A stretch of DNA of 44,545 nt from a virus (IMGVR_UViG_2737471829_000005), one strand, 5' to 3'; positions 1,209-44,443 are shown, counted from the stretch's first letter. Numbers and translations are program-made. Notes: generated by a model not told the origin, from the letters alone.

Positions 1209-1233
1209 ATAAAAAAGGCCCCCGAAGGGGCCT
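1209..1233 (-). terminator. Intrinsic terminator; functional on the minus strand, hairpin also present on plus
   Basis: aggcccc-cgaa-ggggcct, 7-bp GC stem, preceded by A6 on plus, giving a U-run on minus. Confidence 0.55.
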
Positions 1234-1238
1234 AATCG

Positions 1239-1361
1239 CTACTTGCTGCTAATGTTTATCGTCACATTCAGAGCGTTATCAGTAATCTTCCAACCCTCCC
1301 CATGTGGCGTAAACAAAGCTCCAGTAACAACGATAAAAATACACATGTAGTATTTTTTCAT
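1239..1361 (-). CDS. Small hydrophobic peptide of about 40 aa (MKKYYMCIFIVVTGALFT...); possible membrane peptide or type I toxin candidate
   Basis: Internal ATG at 1361 with AAGGG RBS 7 nt upstream; hydrophobic N-terminus; terminator directly downstream. Confidence 0.25.
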   Translation of the reverse strand: MKKYYMCIFIVVTGALFTPHGEGWKITDNALNVTINISSK

Positions 1362-1425
1362 TGTGTGGCCCTTACAGGCCGTTTCACGGCATCCCCACCG
1401 ACGAAAATGACGCGAGAGCAAGCAC

Positions 1426-1445
1426 GCTGTTTGTGCCTGCGTGGT
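1426..1445 (+). repeat. Direct repeat copy 1 (gctgtttgtgcctgcgtggt)
   Basis: 19/20 identical to 1676-1695, 250 bp apart, in an ORF-poor region. Confidence 0.5.
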
Positions 1446-1633
1446 ACGGCAAGTGGATAATCCTTTCCTGAAAGTCAGTGCCCGGGTGCGAATCGGCGGA
1501 AAGGCCCCAAGCCATATTACACGTCATACCCTTCATAATGAAGGAATAAAAAACGCTTTTATTACATAAGATTACACGTAAATAAGTTAAAAACCTTCAT
1601 TTTGCATGAGCTAATGAGCTAAATTTTTTTATA

Positions 1634-2514: not shown

Positions 2515-2616
2515 AAATGCGCCATTGGTGGACACTTTCCGAGCCGTAGCAAAATCTACGGCCGGGATTAGCCTCCTGAATAACACGATGGCGCATACCG
2601 CGTTAGCGGTTTTTTT
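2515..2616 (+). ncRNA. Candidate small regulatory RNA upstream of the small ORF and antirepressor (P1 c4-like position)
   Basis: TTGACA at 2508-2513; internal hairpin gccgtag...ctacggc; terminator-like hairpin plus T-run at 2597-2616; the -10 is poor. Confidence 0.25.
2597..2616 (+). terminator. Short intrinsic-terminator-like hairpin with T-run
   Basis: accgc-gtta-gcggt followed by T6. Confidence 0.4.
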
Positions 2617-2778
2617 ATGCGTAGAGCACTGTTACGCCCAAATTATGGTGGGTCGTACAGGGGCGGAGAAATCCGCGCCGGTTCGTCATTGTGTCCGGTA
2701 AGGCTAACCCTGTACGGCTCACCACCATTTGATTAGCCTCGAATGGCGGTGATAGTTCCATATACTGGAGATATCACA

Positions 2779-2970
2779 ATGACAAACCTACCCCATGACT
2801 ATTACGTCAACCTCGTAAAGATCCTTCTCAAGAAAGCCTCATACGCCGATAAATTCCGCCTGGCTGAAATCATCGAGCGCGAAGCTATGCGCATCGCCAG
2901 CAACGATAACGCTGTTTCTGACGCAAAAATCTCCCTCGTAACCAAAGTAGTTATGGGAGGTGCAAAATGA
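2779..2970 (+). CDS. Small protein (63 aa) overlapping the antirepressor start; Icd-like position
   Basis: ATG at 2779 with GGAG 8 nt upstream; stop overlaps the antirepressor ATG (ATGA). Confidence 0.45.
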   Translation: MTNLPHDYYVNLVKILLKKASYADKFRLAEIIEREAMRIASNDNAVSDAKISLVTKVVMGGAK

Positions 2971-4112
2971 AAACGCTTCCGACCGTTAACACCCTACAGC
3001 CTATCCTGCATAACCAAATCCCTGTCATTACTACCGAGTTACTAGCACAGCTTTACGGCACTGAGCCGGTGCGTATTCGCCAGAATCATCATGAGAACAA
3101 AGCACGTTTCGTTGAAGGGAAACACTTTTTCAAAGTTGTTGGTAATGACCTTAAAGAATTGCGGGTAGCTTTAAACTACTCTCAAAATCCAGTTTCACCT
3201 AAAGTCCGCTCCCTCATCCTCTGGACAGAACGCGGGGCTGCACGTCACGCTAAAATGCTCGAAACCGATCAGGCGTGGGATGTATTCGAACGGCTGGAAG
3301 ACTGCTACTTCAACCAGAACGCGCAAACGGCCGCGACCGTAACCGTCTCACCAAACAATGCTCGTGAGGTTGTCGATACGCTCAACGCTAAACCAATGTA
3401 TTACATTAAGGTGTGCAACAACGAGCCACTCACAACCTCAGCCGATGTTGCCCAGGCATTCAGCACCACAAACAATTCCATCGTTATGGCCATCGATGCG
3501 TTACGCATTCCTCGCACAGCTGCGGCGCGTCACTTCTTTAAAGAGCAACGACCGCTGGAAGGAAGCGACCGCGAAATAACAATCTATCGCATGACAAAAG
3601 ACGGATTTACCTTGCTCATGGAGAGCATCGACGGTCCAAGCGTGAAAGATATCAAGCTGGCCTACATTGAAGCCTTTAACGCTATCAGCAGCGTGTTAAA
3701 AACACAGTACGAGCGTGATCTGGCTAAACGACTATACCAGGAAAAAACGATTATCCGCGCGGCAACAGAGCATAATCGGCTATTAACGGAACCGAACTAC
3801 AGGAAGGAACTAATCAAGGAGTTTGACAAGGCAACAGGGAAAACCAAAGCGGCGCTAAGTCTGCCAGCAATGACTCAGGAAAATGTGATATCAGCCTTAC
3901 TTCTTGATCTGCTCAGAAACGCCAGAGCACTTATCAGCTTTGACGAAAACCTGAATCCTCAGCTCAAGCTACTACCACCGACAGGCAAAGTAGTCGACCA
4001 AGCAGATCACAACAGCATACTCAGCGTACTGGATGCAAACCTGCCAGCCAGGACACTACAGGATCTGATAAAAACATGTGCTGATAAGCTGGCACAGAAA
4101 AGCAGACCATAA
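2967..4112 (+). CDS. Phage antirepressor (Ant-like; ORF6N/AntA-type N-terminal domain)
   Basis: 381-aa ORF; N-terminal region typical of antirepressor/Rha-type proteins; terminator directly downstream. Confidence 0.65.
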   Translation: MKTLPTVNTLQPILHNQIPVITTELLAQLYGTEPVRIRQNHHENKARFVEGKHFFKVVGNDLKELRVALNYSQNPVSPKVRSLILWTERGAARHAKMLETDQAWDVFERLEDCYFNQNAQTAATVTVSPNNAREVVDTLNAKPMYYIKVCNNEPLTTSADVAQAFSTTNNSIVMAIDALRIPRTAAARHFFKEQRPLEGSDREITIYRMTKDGFTLLMESIDGPSVKDIKLAYIEAFNAISSVLKTQYERDLAKRLYQEKTIIRAATEHNRLLTEPNYRKELIKEFDKATGKTKAALSLPAMTQENVISALLLDLLRNARALISFDENLNPQLKLLPPTGKVVDQADHNSILSVLDANLPARTLQDLIKTCADKLAQKSRP

Positions 4113-4116
4113 CTAC

Positions 4117-4149
4117 AAGGGGCTACGGCCCCTTACTCTTTTCTCTCTT
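4117..4149 (+). terminator. Intrinsic terminator ending the antirepressor operon
   Basis: aaggggc-tacg-gcccctt followed by a T-rich tract. Confidence 0.6.
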
Positions 4150-4850
4150 ATCAACACCAGAGACTTTCTGAAAATCCTTTCGAATAGCGTCAGCGTCACG
4201 CGCCAAGCCCATACTCGAACGTGTCGCCATATGACGAAAATGATCAACTGCCGGAAACAAAGAAATAATGGACCCAATAGCTTGCAGCAAACTCGCTTTT
4301 CTACGCATCATAATTCCACCATAACCGATAGCCACCCTTCAGACACAACCCCCCCTCCCCCCATACAGGGTGCCCTTTACCGGAGTTCCGGCCCCTTCTC
4401 AAAAGCATCAAAAAAAGCTCGAGATCGAGTACCGGAACTCATGCCACCAGATAGCTCCACATCGTTTCCAATGCTTCGCCGCCGTGTGCGCCCTGTGGCC
4501 CACAATCATGCCATTGGTCGTCTGATATACCTTCTTCTGCTCATTGAGCACAGGCGAGTTGTCGCACTCCTGCCTTTCTCAGACTCGACTTAGTTTAGAT
4601 CGCTGTTCCTAGCTTGCGTCAGCACACTTTCCCCTTGTACGCATACCCGCGCGCCACTCCGCCCAAAAACACCGAACCCAACGAAGTGGCAAAGACAACG
4701 ACGCGAGCGTGAGTCTGAAACAGGCACCAGTAAAAAAGGGGTTGCAGGCGCAAAAAGATTTGATTATCTTTAGACGCAAGAAAGCCGCCCCAATCAAGAG
4801 GTGTCTTTTTAAATCCAGCCTACCAAGCAAGATTTAAATTTCAGACTGAA

Positions 4851-4880
4851 AACCGCCCGGCAAGGCGGTTTTTGTCTTTC
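4851..4880. terminator. Intrinsic terminator, likely bidirectional
   Basis: aaccgcc-cggcaa-ggcggtt with T-run on plus and A-run upstream. Confidence 0.6.
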
Positions 4881-4921
4881 TGGCGCTTACATTACACCAC
4901 CATAAAACGATCCGTAAAGGA

Positions 4922-5194
4922 TCATTTGATCCCTTGTTCCAATTCTGACGACACTTTAACCTTTTCCCATACAAGGGTTTGCAGCCTTAACAGAATCGCA
5001 TCTTTATCAAGGTGTGAAAGATCCTTAACCATATCGTCAAACGACAGAACGCGAATGGCCATCTCAATGACCCTCGGCGGCTCCCCCTTCTCATATCGCT
5101 TATATGTAGCCAACGATATCCCAAATTCTTCGGCGGCTCGCTCCTGCGTCCAGTTCATCCCACGACGCCATAATTTCAATTCATAACCCGTCAT
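4922..5194 (-). CDS. HTH (XRE-family) DNA-binding protein
   Basis: ATG at 5194 with AGGAGG RBS; HTH motif WTQERAAEEFGISLATYKRYEKG. Confidence 0.65.
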   Translation of the reverse strand: MTGYELKLWRRGMNWTQERAAEEFGISLATYKRYEKGEPPRVIEMAIRVLSFDDMVKDLSHLDKDAILLRLQTLVWEKVKVSSELEQGIK

Positions 5195-6503: not shown

Positions 6504-6692
6504 ATTTCAAGAAAAACGGGGCTATTTAACATAATGGACGTTATCGGCACCACCGGATCACCGTTCATTGTCGGATCTAAAAAATCCGCTCAAAAGATCA
6601 TGTTTTCCTGGGCGTTTTCCACCGTTTTTTATGTTGCTTATTTGTTAATGAAATCTCGTTTTCAGTTTCGCCTCATTTTCGACGCGAAAGCC

Positions 6693-7909: not shown

Positions 7910-8887
7910 TTAATGTTGGAGTGATTTCCAGGTCTTTCTTAGCCTGTTATAACGCTGCTCAACGAGGGATCGTAAATATGCAAGGTCAGCACCAGGATAC
8001 ATGCCATCAGCAAATTCCTGGCTAACCTCTCTAGTGATTTGATGACGAAGTTCGGCCTCTCCCTTTTCCTGAACAAGACGCGCAGCTCTCTCCGCTGCTT
8101 TCTGTTTTGCCTTTATCTCTCTGGCCGTCTTCCTCTGACGCCATACATTCTCCATCTGCTCCTGAATAACAATACGCTTATAATCAGCCTCCGTTATCGC
8201 TTTTTTAAGCCGTTCGCTATTCTTCGCATTGAAGTAATTAAGTTTCTGGCTAACCGCACGTCTCCATGCTTGTTCAGTAATACCAACGGTTTCCAGCAGT
8301 TGATCACGAATCTCTATTTTCGCTGGCCAATACTGTTTATTCACCCGATCCCAGCGACGTTCATAATCAATAAAACCTAACGCTTTCAGTTGCGACAACG
8401 CCCTTGTACAGCGCGTTATAGACTTGTTCCCAGCTTCGGATACGGTAGACAGGCCGCAAAAATCAGCCAACGCCTCAGCACTAGCCAGAACCCGCTTAGA
8501 AATGATGTTTACATGGTGCAAAATCGCAGCGATCACAGCATTAATCGCCCGACGACGATGCTCGTTTATCCGGCGCTTCCGCTCTGACGGTTGATTAACG
8601 TAGAACGCAACCTCACACGTAAGATCACGCCCATTAATGCGCTGTAAAGCATCAGATAACACCAGCGGCAGCTTGTGCGTATGGTGCTTTGGAGGCTGGA
8701 ACTCCGGCGACAAATTACAAACGTAAGCTGAACGTAGAGACGGCATTGGTCTATCCATATGTTCGCTCTTGCGTCCACGGAAAACCAACGTATAATGGGA
8801 GTTGTCGAGGCGCCCATGGTTAATTGTTGGTTTTCCGTGGATGTCGCAAGAAGCCCGCAGATTTATCTGCGGGCTTTTTGTTTCCAT
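7910..8887 (-). CDS. repA: Replication initiator RepA, IncFII (RepA1) family; true start may be internal near 8758
   Basis: Central block CGLSTVSEAGNKSITRCTRALSQLKALGFIDY matches the conserved core of IncFII RepA1 as recalled; basic coiled C-terminus. Confidence 0.75.
   Translation of the reverse strand: METKSPQINLRASCDIHGKPTINHGRLDNSHYTLVFRGRKSEHMDRPMPSLRSAYVCNLSPEFQPPKHHTHKLPLVLSDALQRINGRDLTCEVAFYVNQPSERKRRINEHRRRAINAVIAAILHHVNIISKRVLASAEALADFCGLSTVSEAGNKSITRCTRALSQLKALGFIDYERRWDRVNKQYWPAKIEIRDQLLETVGITEQAWRRAVSQKLNYFNAKNSERLKKAITEADYKRIVIQEQMENVWRQRKTAREIKAKQKAAERAARLVQEKGEAELRHQITREVSQEFADGMYPGADLAYLRSLVEQRYNRLRKTWKSLQH
8769..8796 (+). promoter_or_regulatory. Near-consensus sigma70 promoter antisense to the repA 5' region
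   Basis: TTGCGT, 16-bp spacer, TATAAT. Confidence 0.55.
8803..8880 (+). ncRNA. Candidate CopA-like antisense RNA of about 78 nt
   Basis: Promoter 8769-8796 and strong terminator 8853-8883 bracket a short plus-strand transcript antisense to the repA 5' end. Confidence 0.5.
8853..8883 (+). terminator. Intrinsic terminator of the candidate antisense RNA
   Basis: gcccgcag-atttat-ctgcgggc followed by TTTTTGTTT. Confidence 0.65.
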
Positions 8888-38714: not shown

Positions 38715-38790
38715 TGGTGGCCCCTACCGGATTTGAACCGATGACCGTGCGATTATGAGTCGCCTGCTCTAACCACTAAGCTAAGGGGCC
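38715..38790 (-). tRNA. tRNA with CAU anticodon (Ile2-like or Met elongator; not distinguishable by eye)
   Basis: Reverse complement is GGCCCCTTAGCTTAGTGGTTAGAGCAGGCGACTCATAATCGCACGGTCATCGGTTCAAATCCGGTAGGGGCCACCA: 7-bp acceptor stem, D-arm, CTCATAA anticodon loop, GGTTCAAATCC T-arm, encoded CCA. Confidence 0.85.
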
Positions 38791-43375: not shown

Positions 43376-44443
43376 TCAGGCTTTCAATAGCGATTCTTTC
43401 AGATATCGGGCATCAGCCAGGGCATTTGGAGTAATCTTGCGAACCCATGCATTACGGGTTGGACTCCACTTAAAGGCGCGTGATTTAAGCAGCGAACGAA
43501 TGTTTGCCTCTGGTTTGCCAGGGAAATAAAACAGGATGCGGTTATCCTCTGGATCTATCTCCATAGAAAAGTCGTCGTATTCTTCGCGCTGTGCTCCTGT
43601 TACAGACTTGACCGATTCAAGCTCCTTAATACGGCTCTGTAGTCGTTTGATCTCGGCGTTATTGTTGCTCAGTACGTATGAAGGGAATCCGATGCGCCCA
43701 CAGAAATCTCCGGCCAGTAACTCTTTGGCTTCGCTTTCTGTAAACCTGAGATCGATTAATGCAGAAAGCACCTGTAATTGGTCTTTTTTGTATTTGCGAA
43801 TGGCCTTATTTGCGGCCTTCATTTTGACGTGTGACTTCATGCAGCCTTGCAGCTTACGAAGCAACTTAAATAGCGCATCAGGATCATCAGACGAAATTCC
43901 ATTACGACCAACACCTGCGGCTTTGCTCTCGTAGTGTGATGCTTTACTTTCGCATTCAACAAACGCTTTTCTTAATAACGCATCAGCTTTAGACAAACGG
44001 CGGCGATGGCCTTTCGCGCTATAATGGTCAACTAAAATCGGCTGGCCTAACGGGATCACATCCAACAGGTCATGCGCTCGCTTATGCGCTACCGCACCTT
44101 CTTTTCTGGCTTTTTCTGCACGAGCAATATATCGGGCAAGACGCGCGTTCTGGCGTTCCTGATAGGTGTTTACGTAATCATCTCCGCGCTGCTGCTGTTC
44201 AAGCCATGCTTTGCGCAGATCTTCTGTTACGTCCACCAGCTCCGCAGGGATACAACCAGTTTGGGCTTCATAAGAGTAACCATCCTCATAGATACGCCCA
44301 TCATCTTCAACAAAGAAAAAGGTTTCGTGCTCATCGCTTTTGACCATACGACCATTAACATGGCGTAATAGGTAGCCAGTATCAGTGCTTAACAGGCTGT
44401 TAGGGTTGTTGATCCAGTCAGAAATAATTACTTGTTTATTCAT
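43376..44443 (-). CDS. DUF3560-like protein (355 aa), single gene behind leader cassette C
   Basis: LGQPILVDHYSAKGHRRRL and C-terminal FKWSPTRNAWVRK resemble conserved DUF3560 blocks as recalled. Confidence 0.55.
   Translation of the reverse strand: MNKQVIISDWINNPNSLLSTDTGYLLRHVNGRMVKSDEHETFFFVEDDGRIYEDGYSYEAQTGCIPAELVDVTEDLRKAWLEQQQRGDDYVNTYQERQNARLARYIARAEKARKEGAVAHKRAHDLLDVIPLGQPILVDHYSAKGHRRRLSKADALLRKAFVECESKASHYESKAAGVGRNGISSDDPDALFKLLRKLQGCMKSHVKMKAANKAIRKYKKDQLQVLSALIDLRFTESEAKELLAGDFCGRIGFPSYVLSNNNAEIKRLQSRIKELESVKSVTGAQREEYDDFSMEIDPEDNRILFYFPGKPEANIRSLLKSRAFKWSPTRNAWVRKITPNALADARYLKESLLKA

Follow-up and report, generated by a model that had tools for sequence, protein, structure and literature searches.

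The locus and its carrier

The locus lies just beyond the antirepressor gene (2967-4112, with ORF6N and Rha domains) in a window of 44,545 nucleotides, by which we mean the whole stretch of viral DNA analysed here (IMGVR_UViG_2737471829_000005). Upstream of this gene are isrK (2543-2616, plus strand) and the C4 antisense RNA (2641-2729, plus strand), both at or above the Rfam gathering threshold, and then a 63-aa ORF. This region, with the antirepressor gene, is a P1-type immI circuit. In relatives the c4-a1b1 target matches slightly under the Rfam threshold. Directly 3' of the antirepressor gene is the terminator hairpin of its operon (4117-4134, plus strand), which has a T-rich tail and is listed on both strands by the terminator scan. 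As modelled, it would be usable both ways and would also stop minus-strand read-through from the origin we propose below. Next come a slot for accessory genes and a conserved non-coding block. The HigBA toxin-antitoxin pair adjoins the block region. A complete Xer site is found nearby, in the intergenic stretch after higB (6524-6551, minus strand). It reads GGTGCCGATAA-CGTCCA-TTATGTTAAAT, that is, a XerC arm, a 6-bp spacer and a perfect XerD arm, and is probably the multimer-resolution site of the plasmid form.

The window is about 99.8-99.9% identical over the region to the Yersinia pestis myophages vB_YpM_39, vB_YpM_41 and vB_YpM_44, which are circular and about 49 kb. It also matches plasmids of about 48 kb from E. 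coli, E. fergusonii, E. albertii and Klebsiella aerogenes, and Salmonella plasmids of about 48 kb match it at 88-90%. Near-identity to isolated phages and to plasmids alike implies that the window is a phage-plasmid. The family is carried by 72 of 5,426 complete E. coli genomes, including ATCC 25922 (plasmid NZ_CP009073), and is common in clinical E. coli. A protein scan identifies an IncFII-family RepA (7910-8887, minus strand), and ParA (28-696) is recognised by a domain/protein match. The window also encodes a Hin-type invertase and tail, head and terminase genes. The element is a temperate myovirus and a plasmid, with the block that we will argue is of ColE1 type next to its antirepressor operon, alongside the IncFII RepA replicon. 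A 32-kb deletion derivative retains both RepA and the block, and does not separate the two replicons.

Two further RNA genes were seen in the window. Between the partition genes and a 190-aa helix-turn-helix protein there is a strong ryfA RNA match (1211-1509, minus strand, 134.6 bits), and a tRNA gene is found in the phage late/accessory region (38718-38790, minus strand, Rfam tRNA, 65.8 bits). Twenty proteins were scanned, with the structural genes left out, and no recognisable phage initiator or helicase is among them; the scan gave only methyltransferases with ParB-like domains and a DUF3560 protein. This last protein (355 aa, 43376-44443, minus strand) has a C-terminal half that matches phrog_19458, labelled 'primase', at E=1.3e-35. 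It is the sole hint of a phage-encoded replication protein among those scanned.

The conserved block and its surroundings

The preliminary description of this DNA treated 4150-4880 as one ORF-poor segment bounded by two terminators. The segment is not uniform. Its left third is an accessory ORF, and the conserved unit runs from about 4337 to about 4925, beyond the right edge first drawn. Both terminators are real, but the right-hand one (4847-4874, plus strand, a strong terminator with a U tail in the terminator scan) belongs inside the conserved unit and not at its edge. The claim that there is no convincing ORF survives at 4337-4880, where no credible long one is seen, but 4123-4311 on the minus strand is a 62-aa hypothetical ORF annotated in OR545053 and NZ_CP009073 (GenBank/RefSeq). 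This ORF has only a weak PHROG match. Depending on the family member, the slot between the antirepressor terminator and the block holds the 62-aa ORF, an unrelated 211-214-aa phrog_23465 gene, or nothing. The same slot lies at 2316-2951 in L005, at 2312-2956 in L004 and at about 2985-3000 in L003. In L003, L029 and L030 the hairpin equivalent to 4117-4134 directly adjoins the block. Judged from this comparison the slot (4123-4336) is a replaceable hotspot for accessory genes, and the 62-aa ORF is outside the predicted origin.

Conservation breaks sharply at about 4337 in all clades, and rightwards of this point there is one block to about 4925. It is whole in 72 of the 72 E. coli records that have it, in 62 PLSDB records and in 3 isolated Yersinia phages, and no record listed has an annotated feature beneath it. 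Against the Salmonella versions the block has 80-97% identity in 60-nt windows, while the genes beside it, for the helix-turn-helix protein, the 126-aa protein and HigBA, have 53-80% between E. coli and Salmonella. About 70 substitutions separate the two versions of the block. Codon periodicity is absent in every sub-segment and there are several 1-nt indels. A comparative alignment was one of the checks proposed at the outset, and it gives what a non-coding reading expects, conservation free of codon periodicity. The block is under selection as non-coding sequence, and it is conserved more than the neighbouring genes.

The description of the segment as GC- and C-rich is borne out. GC content is 0.53-0.55 against about 0.45-0.49 nearby, and the GC skew of the plus strand is about -0.3 at 4200-4650. 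The 9-bp inverted repeat that it reported is also there and is perfect (GAGTTCCGG/CCGGAACTC, at 4383-4391 and 4432-4440). An origin of the iteron or DnaA-box kind can be rejected, as the repeats are only short two-copy chance matches and GC is higher than the local average. Operator-like repeats common to the primer promoter described below and the rest of the window are at chance level.

Searches by blastn of phages, plasmids and E. coli genomes with the whole block and with its origin-proximal 134 nt found only the same family. The block is absent from a one-genome-per-species collection, whether sought by DNA pattern or through the 126-aa protein encoded next to it. Viral and metagenome collections yielded no more than a few variants of intermediate sequence (L014, L026, L030 and L035). 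Two of these carry natural deletions. In L030 (Ga0308157_10026280) a 50-nt deletion corresponds to window 4643-4692 and cleanly removes a covarying hairpin, and in L035 (ERZ791802 NODE-7666) a 22-nt deletion corresponds to window 4566-4587. These deletions could mark dispensable modules of the primer RNA.

Homology to ColE1-like origins

We compared the block with ColE1-like origins by profile searches. A profile made from ColE1 (NC_001371) and 7 ColE1-like origins at 75-81% blastn identity to it has a single significant nhmmer match in the 44.5-kb window (4941 to 4849, minus strand, E=1.2e-5). This match spans an RNA II promoter, with its GATC-flanked -35 and its -10, and stem-loop 1. The primer-RNA promoter (4889-4923, minus strand) aligns base for base with the RNA II promoter of ColE1. 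Its -35, TTTACG (4913-4918, minus strand), is inside the palindrome GATCCTTTACGGATC, which has two Dam sites (4909-4912 and 4920-4923), and its -10 is TGgTGTAATGT (4889-4899, minus strand). In the -35 region the palindrome AAAGGATCTTCTTGAGATCCTTTT of ColE1, also with two GATC sites, lies over AAATGATCCTTTACGGATCGTTTT of the block. At the -10, GCGTAATCT lies over GTGTAATGT, and at stem-loop 1 of RNA II, AAAAAACCACC...GGTGGTTTT lies over AAAAACCGCC...GGCGGTTTT. A scan for the sigma-70 consensus gave 0 matches in the block. It was blank because its thresholds exclude TGTAAT and TATCTT, the latter being the -10 of the antisense promoter discussed below.

This match is specific to one site. Across 340 kb of related loci the ColE1 profile scores at least 14 bits only at the promoter and stem-loop 1, in 37 of 37 copies and in all clades. 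The next-best class, at 6 bits, is unrelated terminators. The reciprocal search agrees, since a profile of the block finds the same site of ColE1-like plasmids (E=1.3e-6). It also finds two MOBP plasmids of 5.6-7 kb (L048 and L049, E=3.9e-9), which score 589 bits with the ColE1 profile. A BLAST search with the 106-nt promoter segment returns about 1,700 plasmid records outside the family. Among the matches listed most are 2-12 kb, and the best is 75% over 93 nt (E=1e-4) in a 7-kb ColE1-like plasmid.

The other end of the block has its own similarity. The origin-proximal part of the primer RNA (4376-4493, minus strand) aligns with the last ~115 nt of ColE1-type RNA II. In five ColE1-like sequences, and in L048 and L049 as well, the block profile finds weak but colinear matches over the ~115 nt that precede the origin. 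A second ColE1 profile was stripped of the promoter and stem-loop 1, and its scores were compared with those of 400 dinucleotide shuffles. In the colinear origin-proximal segment it scores 10.3 bits in L026, which 0 of 400 shuffles reach; for L014, SalW and SalC the score is reached by 1, 2 and 3 of 400 shuffles. The stripped profile reports no match in the window's own copy, and the variants that do match are 88-91% identical to that copy. One of these alignments extends to the switch motif (GGAAA), with GGAGCCTATGGAAA over GGAAC-TCCGGAAA. The predicted RNA-to-DNA switch (RNase H / Pol I) has the form GG(T/G)AAA, and in the window we place it at GGTAAA (4381 to 4376, minus strand).

Between the two ends, similarity of the central ~300 nt of the primer RNA to ColE1 was not detected. 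Local and global pairwise alignments of the block to ColE1 with shuffles were not significant or uninformative, and a six-frame translation comparison of the block with the ColE1 origin gave noise.

There is also the geometry to consider. In ColE1 a G-rich RNA segment near -265 and a template C-run near -20 are needed for a persistent hybrid. The G-runs of ColE1 are at -267/-262 and -20/-15. When the switch is set at GGTAAA, the block has GGGG runs at -258/-255 (4631-4634, minus strand) and at -19/-16 (4392-4395, minus strand). The first of these is in a 40-nt segment (4612-4651, minus strand) that holds AAGGGGAAAG and is invariant between the E. coli and Salmonella clades. By analogy, the AAGGGGAAAG segment is a candidate for the G-rich RNA element that pairs with the template C-run near -20. 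The conserved block also has a tail past the predicted switch (4337-4375, minus strand). In this tail there is a near-invariant 14-nt G-run, GGGGGGAGGGGGGG (4349-4362, on the RNA-like minus strand), that is 14-27 nt beyond the switch. This run may stabilise or anchor an R-loop. The true switch could even be inside the tail, at the long G-run.

The predicted primer and antisense RNAs

Homology at both ends, the fold and covariation together define a predicted primer RNA, the counterpart of RNA II, at 4376-4884 on the minus strand. With a start at 4881-4884 its length would be about 506-509 nt, against 555 in ColE1, and over the first ~105 nt it is complementary to the predicted antisense RNA. 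The fold has a z-score of -2.5.

We examined five helices across the family. In these, 95.3% of cells are paired, against 34-59% in slid controls; the pairing, the covariation score and the double-change count are each higher than in any of 500 shuffles. The most variable is a hairpin at 4653-4690 of the minus strand, with a 9-bp stem (arms 4653-4661 and 4682-4690) and a C/A-rich loop of 20 nt. Both sides have changed in 5 of its 9 pairs, yet 98% of cells remain paired. Its 7 distinct variants retain 8-9 of 9 pairs if read on the minus strand and 6-9 of 9 if read on the plus strand; where the plus strand has a C.A mismatch, the minus strand has G.U. The 9-bp inverted repeat behaves the same way, with a Salmonella change that reads as A.C on the plus strand but as G.U on the minus. 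Compensatory and G.U changes of this kind support the minus strand as the functional RNA strand.

Not every candidate structure held up. A long-range inverted repeat (4566-4586/4711-4731) is lost in the Salmonella alignment, and its 5' arm is deleted in L035. A small hairpin, CTCGAGATCGAG at 4419-4430, is inconsistent between clades. A strand comparison of the whole block by RNAalifold was set aside, since it is biased by the strand of structure prediction and has only 43 shared pairs.

The counterpart of RNA I would be on the plus strand. A weak candidate promoter can be read from the sequence at 4742-4770, with TTGCAG (4742-4747), a 17-nt spacer and TATCTT (4765-4770). It is conserved and matches the consensus at 7 of 12 positions, which is below the threshold of the consensus scan. 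At 4742-4776, 33 of 35 columns are invariant and the clades differ only in the spacer. From this we infer an antisense start at about 4777. The fold and the terminator give a predicted antisense RNA of ~105 nt (4777-4881, plus strand). It folds into three stem-loops (4780-4809, 4810-4836, and the terminator at 4843-4877), as the 108-nt RNA I of ColE1 does, with a z-score of -4.0, and the Salmonella version has the same architecture. Relative to the primer RNA it would begin ~105 nt in and end at the primer start. Between clades, each of the three stem-loops varies in its loop, and the middle one also varies in its upper part; stems 1 and 3 are invariant. Variation is only marginally enriched at unpaired positions (p=0.058). 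Loop differences between clades are as expected of incompatibility determinants.

It must be said that an Rfam scan, which the preliminary description had suggested for a structured RNA, finds nothing credible in the block at gathering or E-value thresholds. The RNAI family (RF00106) gives 18.1 bits and E=1.9 at 4802-4875 (plus strand), under its gathering threshold of 47, and has no match at E<=5 in L003, L004, L026 or L030.

Competing explanations

We argue that window 4337-4925 is probably a diverged ColE1-type, RNA-primed replication origin on the minus strand, beside an IncFII RepA replicon. The preliminary description had offered a structured non-coding RNA or a lytic origin as separate options. 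On our reading both were right in kind and are one and the same ColE1-type origin, though its place on the minus strand and its limits were missed, and a lytic role is no more than plausible. The promoter with stem-loop 1 and the origin-proximal ~115 nt are homologous to ColE1-like origins, and the geometry matches. As a statement about sequence, homology to these origins and a shared architecture can be held with good confidence. We hold the activity of the block as an origin with less, by analogy. The start sites, the antisense promoter, the R-loop, the dependence on RNase H and Pol I, and origin activity itself would follow from what is known of ColE1 biology. Several points can be raised against a ColE1-type origin. 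Among them are the low Rfam RNAI score, the weak antisense promoter, the central ~300 nt without similarity to ColE1, the lack of a match of the stripped profile in the window's own copy, the missing rom/rop gene and the marginal enrichment of variation at unpaired positions. In addition, the RepA replicon could suffice for maintenance, and a multicopy origin might be costly on a 48-kb replicon.

The alternative that survives best is a relic: a small ColE1-like plasmid would have co-integrated long ago, and the block left from it, recognisable at both ends, would no longer fire. It would then persist by hitch-hiking, or because pieces of it such as the terminator and promoter serve neighbouring genes. 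Co-integrates of ColE1 with large plasmids are common, and the working state of their origins is an open question (PMC8683028). The central primer RNA cannot be aligned to ColE1, the element has a RepA replicon, and cargo like that of small plasmids (the HigBA pair and the Xer site) is nearby. However, dead sequence should decay no slower than synonymous sites, and this block is more conserved than the flanking coding genes, which differ by 20-45% across clades. There is almost no variation in the two promoters, the G-runs or the switch motif, a stem covaries while the loops diverge, and the block is intact in every family member found. We consider a relic unlikely.

Another scenario has no part for replication. 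In this one the block is a regulatory RNA locus, with the plus strand (about 4777-4881) encoding an Hfq-type sRNA and the minus strand a long structured leader or 3' UTR that would control the downstream accessory gene or the upstream helix-turn-helix gene. The plus-strand RNA does combine stem-loops with an A/U-rich stretch and a U-tailed terminator. Small RNAs occur in the immunity regions of prophages, as isrK and C4 do here 2 kb upstream, and the minus-strand RNA continues into a variable ORF. But that ORF is missing in some members with an intact block, and a regulatory locus leaves the colinear ColE1 homology at two ends and the matching G-run geometry unexplained. We find this rather less credible than a relic.

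It is very improbable that the block is a decayed or unusual protein-coding gene, or the site-specific recombination site that the preliminary description allowed for: the ORFs found mechanically (171 aa at 4078-4593, plus strand; 47 aa at 4408-4551, minus strand) lack third-position bias and are broken by frame-shifting 1-nt indels between clades, and the XerC-arm-like TGCGTACAA at 4635-4645 is a half-site that has no adjoining XerD arm and occurs at chance rate, while the complete Xer site of the element is the one at 6524-6551.

Proposed mechanism and role

If the block is a working ColE1-type origin, replication would proceed as follows. The sigma-70 promoter at 4889-4918 would start a primer RNA of ~505 nt at about 4881-4884, and this RNA would fold while elongating leftwards. 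Two elements would help to keep it paired with the template, the G-rich loop near -258 and the GGGG/C-run near -19. RNase H would then cut the hybrid near GGTAAA (about 4376), or perhaps at the long G-run, as much as 40 nt to the left, and DNA polymerase I would extend the cut RNA toward the antirepressor gene. The ~105-nt antisense RNA (4777-4881, plus strand) would pair with the 5' end of the primer, prevent its maturation and set copy number and incompatibility.

Since the IncFII RepA replicon is also present, the ColE1-type block would be a second replicon. The scan revealed no phage initiator or helicase, and the block is beyond the antirepressor operon, as the lytic replicon is in P1, so a vegetative role is plausible by analogy. 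It may just as well serve maintenance, copy number or incompatibility. More tentatively, the block may be the vegetative (lytic) origin, with the genome amplified by host RNA polymerase, RNase H and Pol I through R-loop priming, and the antisense RNA of a prophage may act in trans as immunity or incompatibility at the level of replication against superinfecting relatives. We regard this as possible but would not bet on it. If it were true, the diverged loops of the E. coli and Salmonella lineages would define hetero-immune groups. More generally, a ColE1-type origin may explain the family's genome amplification or copy-number control, and it predicts RNA-based incompatibility between related elements.

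Comparison with known systems

The block shares many features with replicons of the ColE1, pMB1 and p15A type. The RNA II promoter has its -35 in a GATC...GATC palindrome and is followed by the -10. Stem-loop 1 doubles as the RNA I terminator, and there is a predicted antisense RNA of ~105 nt with three stem-loops. The G-runs near -260 and -20, the GGxAAA switch motif and the aligned origin-proximal ~115 nt are all in place, and as in ColE1-type replicons no initiator protein is encoded within the unit. There are differences too. Unlike them, the block has diverged so far that blastn fails over most of its length and the Rfam RNAI model stays under threshold. Its G-runs are GGGG where those of ColE1 are GGGGGG, it has the 14-nt G-run just past the predicted switch, and its primer RNA is about 50 nt shorter. 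The element has no rom/rop, mob or colicin genes.

Both ColE1 origins and the co-integrates that carry them are well documented (Ares-Arroyo et al. 2021, PMC8683028). These authors describe ColE1-type origins in replicons of more than 25 kb that have a Rep-based replicon, and such origins often go unnoticed by annotators (PMC8683028). Our element resembles these co-integrates in that a ColE1-type origin is embedded in a large replicon with a second, Rep-based one. The origins of the co-integrates were caught by the authors' profiles and usually come with rop, colicin or transposon cargo and recent IS/Tn junctions (PMC8683028), whereas our block has diverged in step with the phage backbone across the E. 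coli and Salmonella lineages. Six family plasmids that had been deposited earlier are absent from the tables of the 1,035-plasmid ColE1 census (PMC8683028). PLSDB replicon typing gives none for the family members fetched, and MOB-suite assigns no replicon type to the PLSDB records NZ_LN890526.1, NZ_CP044178.1 and NZ_CP028194.1, despite their IncFII-family RepA and ColE1-type block. Replicon typing and origin censuses miss diverged ColE1-type origins.

In the phage collection only 11 records have canonical ColE1 origins, and the majority of these resemble sequence from cloning vectors or small contigs that are unrelated. Three deposited phage genomes, MZ375336.1 (Salmonella phage seszw, 31443-32050), MT446410.1 (Escherichia virus TH38) and OR474059.1, contain pMB1/ColE1 origins that are near-canonical, with 91-96% identity to ColE1. 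These three are likely vector or plasmid contamination, or engineered constructs.

Phage P1 is a useful comparison for position. Its lytic replicon, kilA-repL/oriL, is downstream of the immI region (c4-icd-ant). The initiator there is the RepL protein, oriL is inside repL, and repL is transcribed in the same direction as ant. As in P1, the replication element predicted here is just beyond the antirepressor operon of a C4-controlled immunity region, and the likeness is one of position. The block differs from the P1 replicon in having no rep gene, in its predicted RNA priming and in its opposite orientation. Phage-plasmids are usually described with a plasmid replicon and a phage lytic replicon that are both protein-initiated. 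If our reading is true, a host-dependent, RNA-primed ColE1-type origin in an infectious 48-kb myovirus is a different design.

A precedent in kind comes from the cluster A mycobacteriophages, whose RNA-based extrachromosomal prophage origins were called the first of their kind (Wetzel et al. 2020, PMC7157519). They too are temperate phages maintained as plasmids that replicate via a non-coding RNA, as is predicted here, and not an initiator protein. However, their hosts belong to another phylum, no ColE1 homology is claimed for them and they lack RepA (PMC7157519), while the present element has RepA and the predicted RNA-based origin. Our literature search found no paper describing a ColE1-type origin of this phage-plasmid family. 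ColE1-type origins themselves are known, and the block is best explained as a diverged version of one in an unusual carrier, a phage-plasmid.
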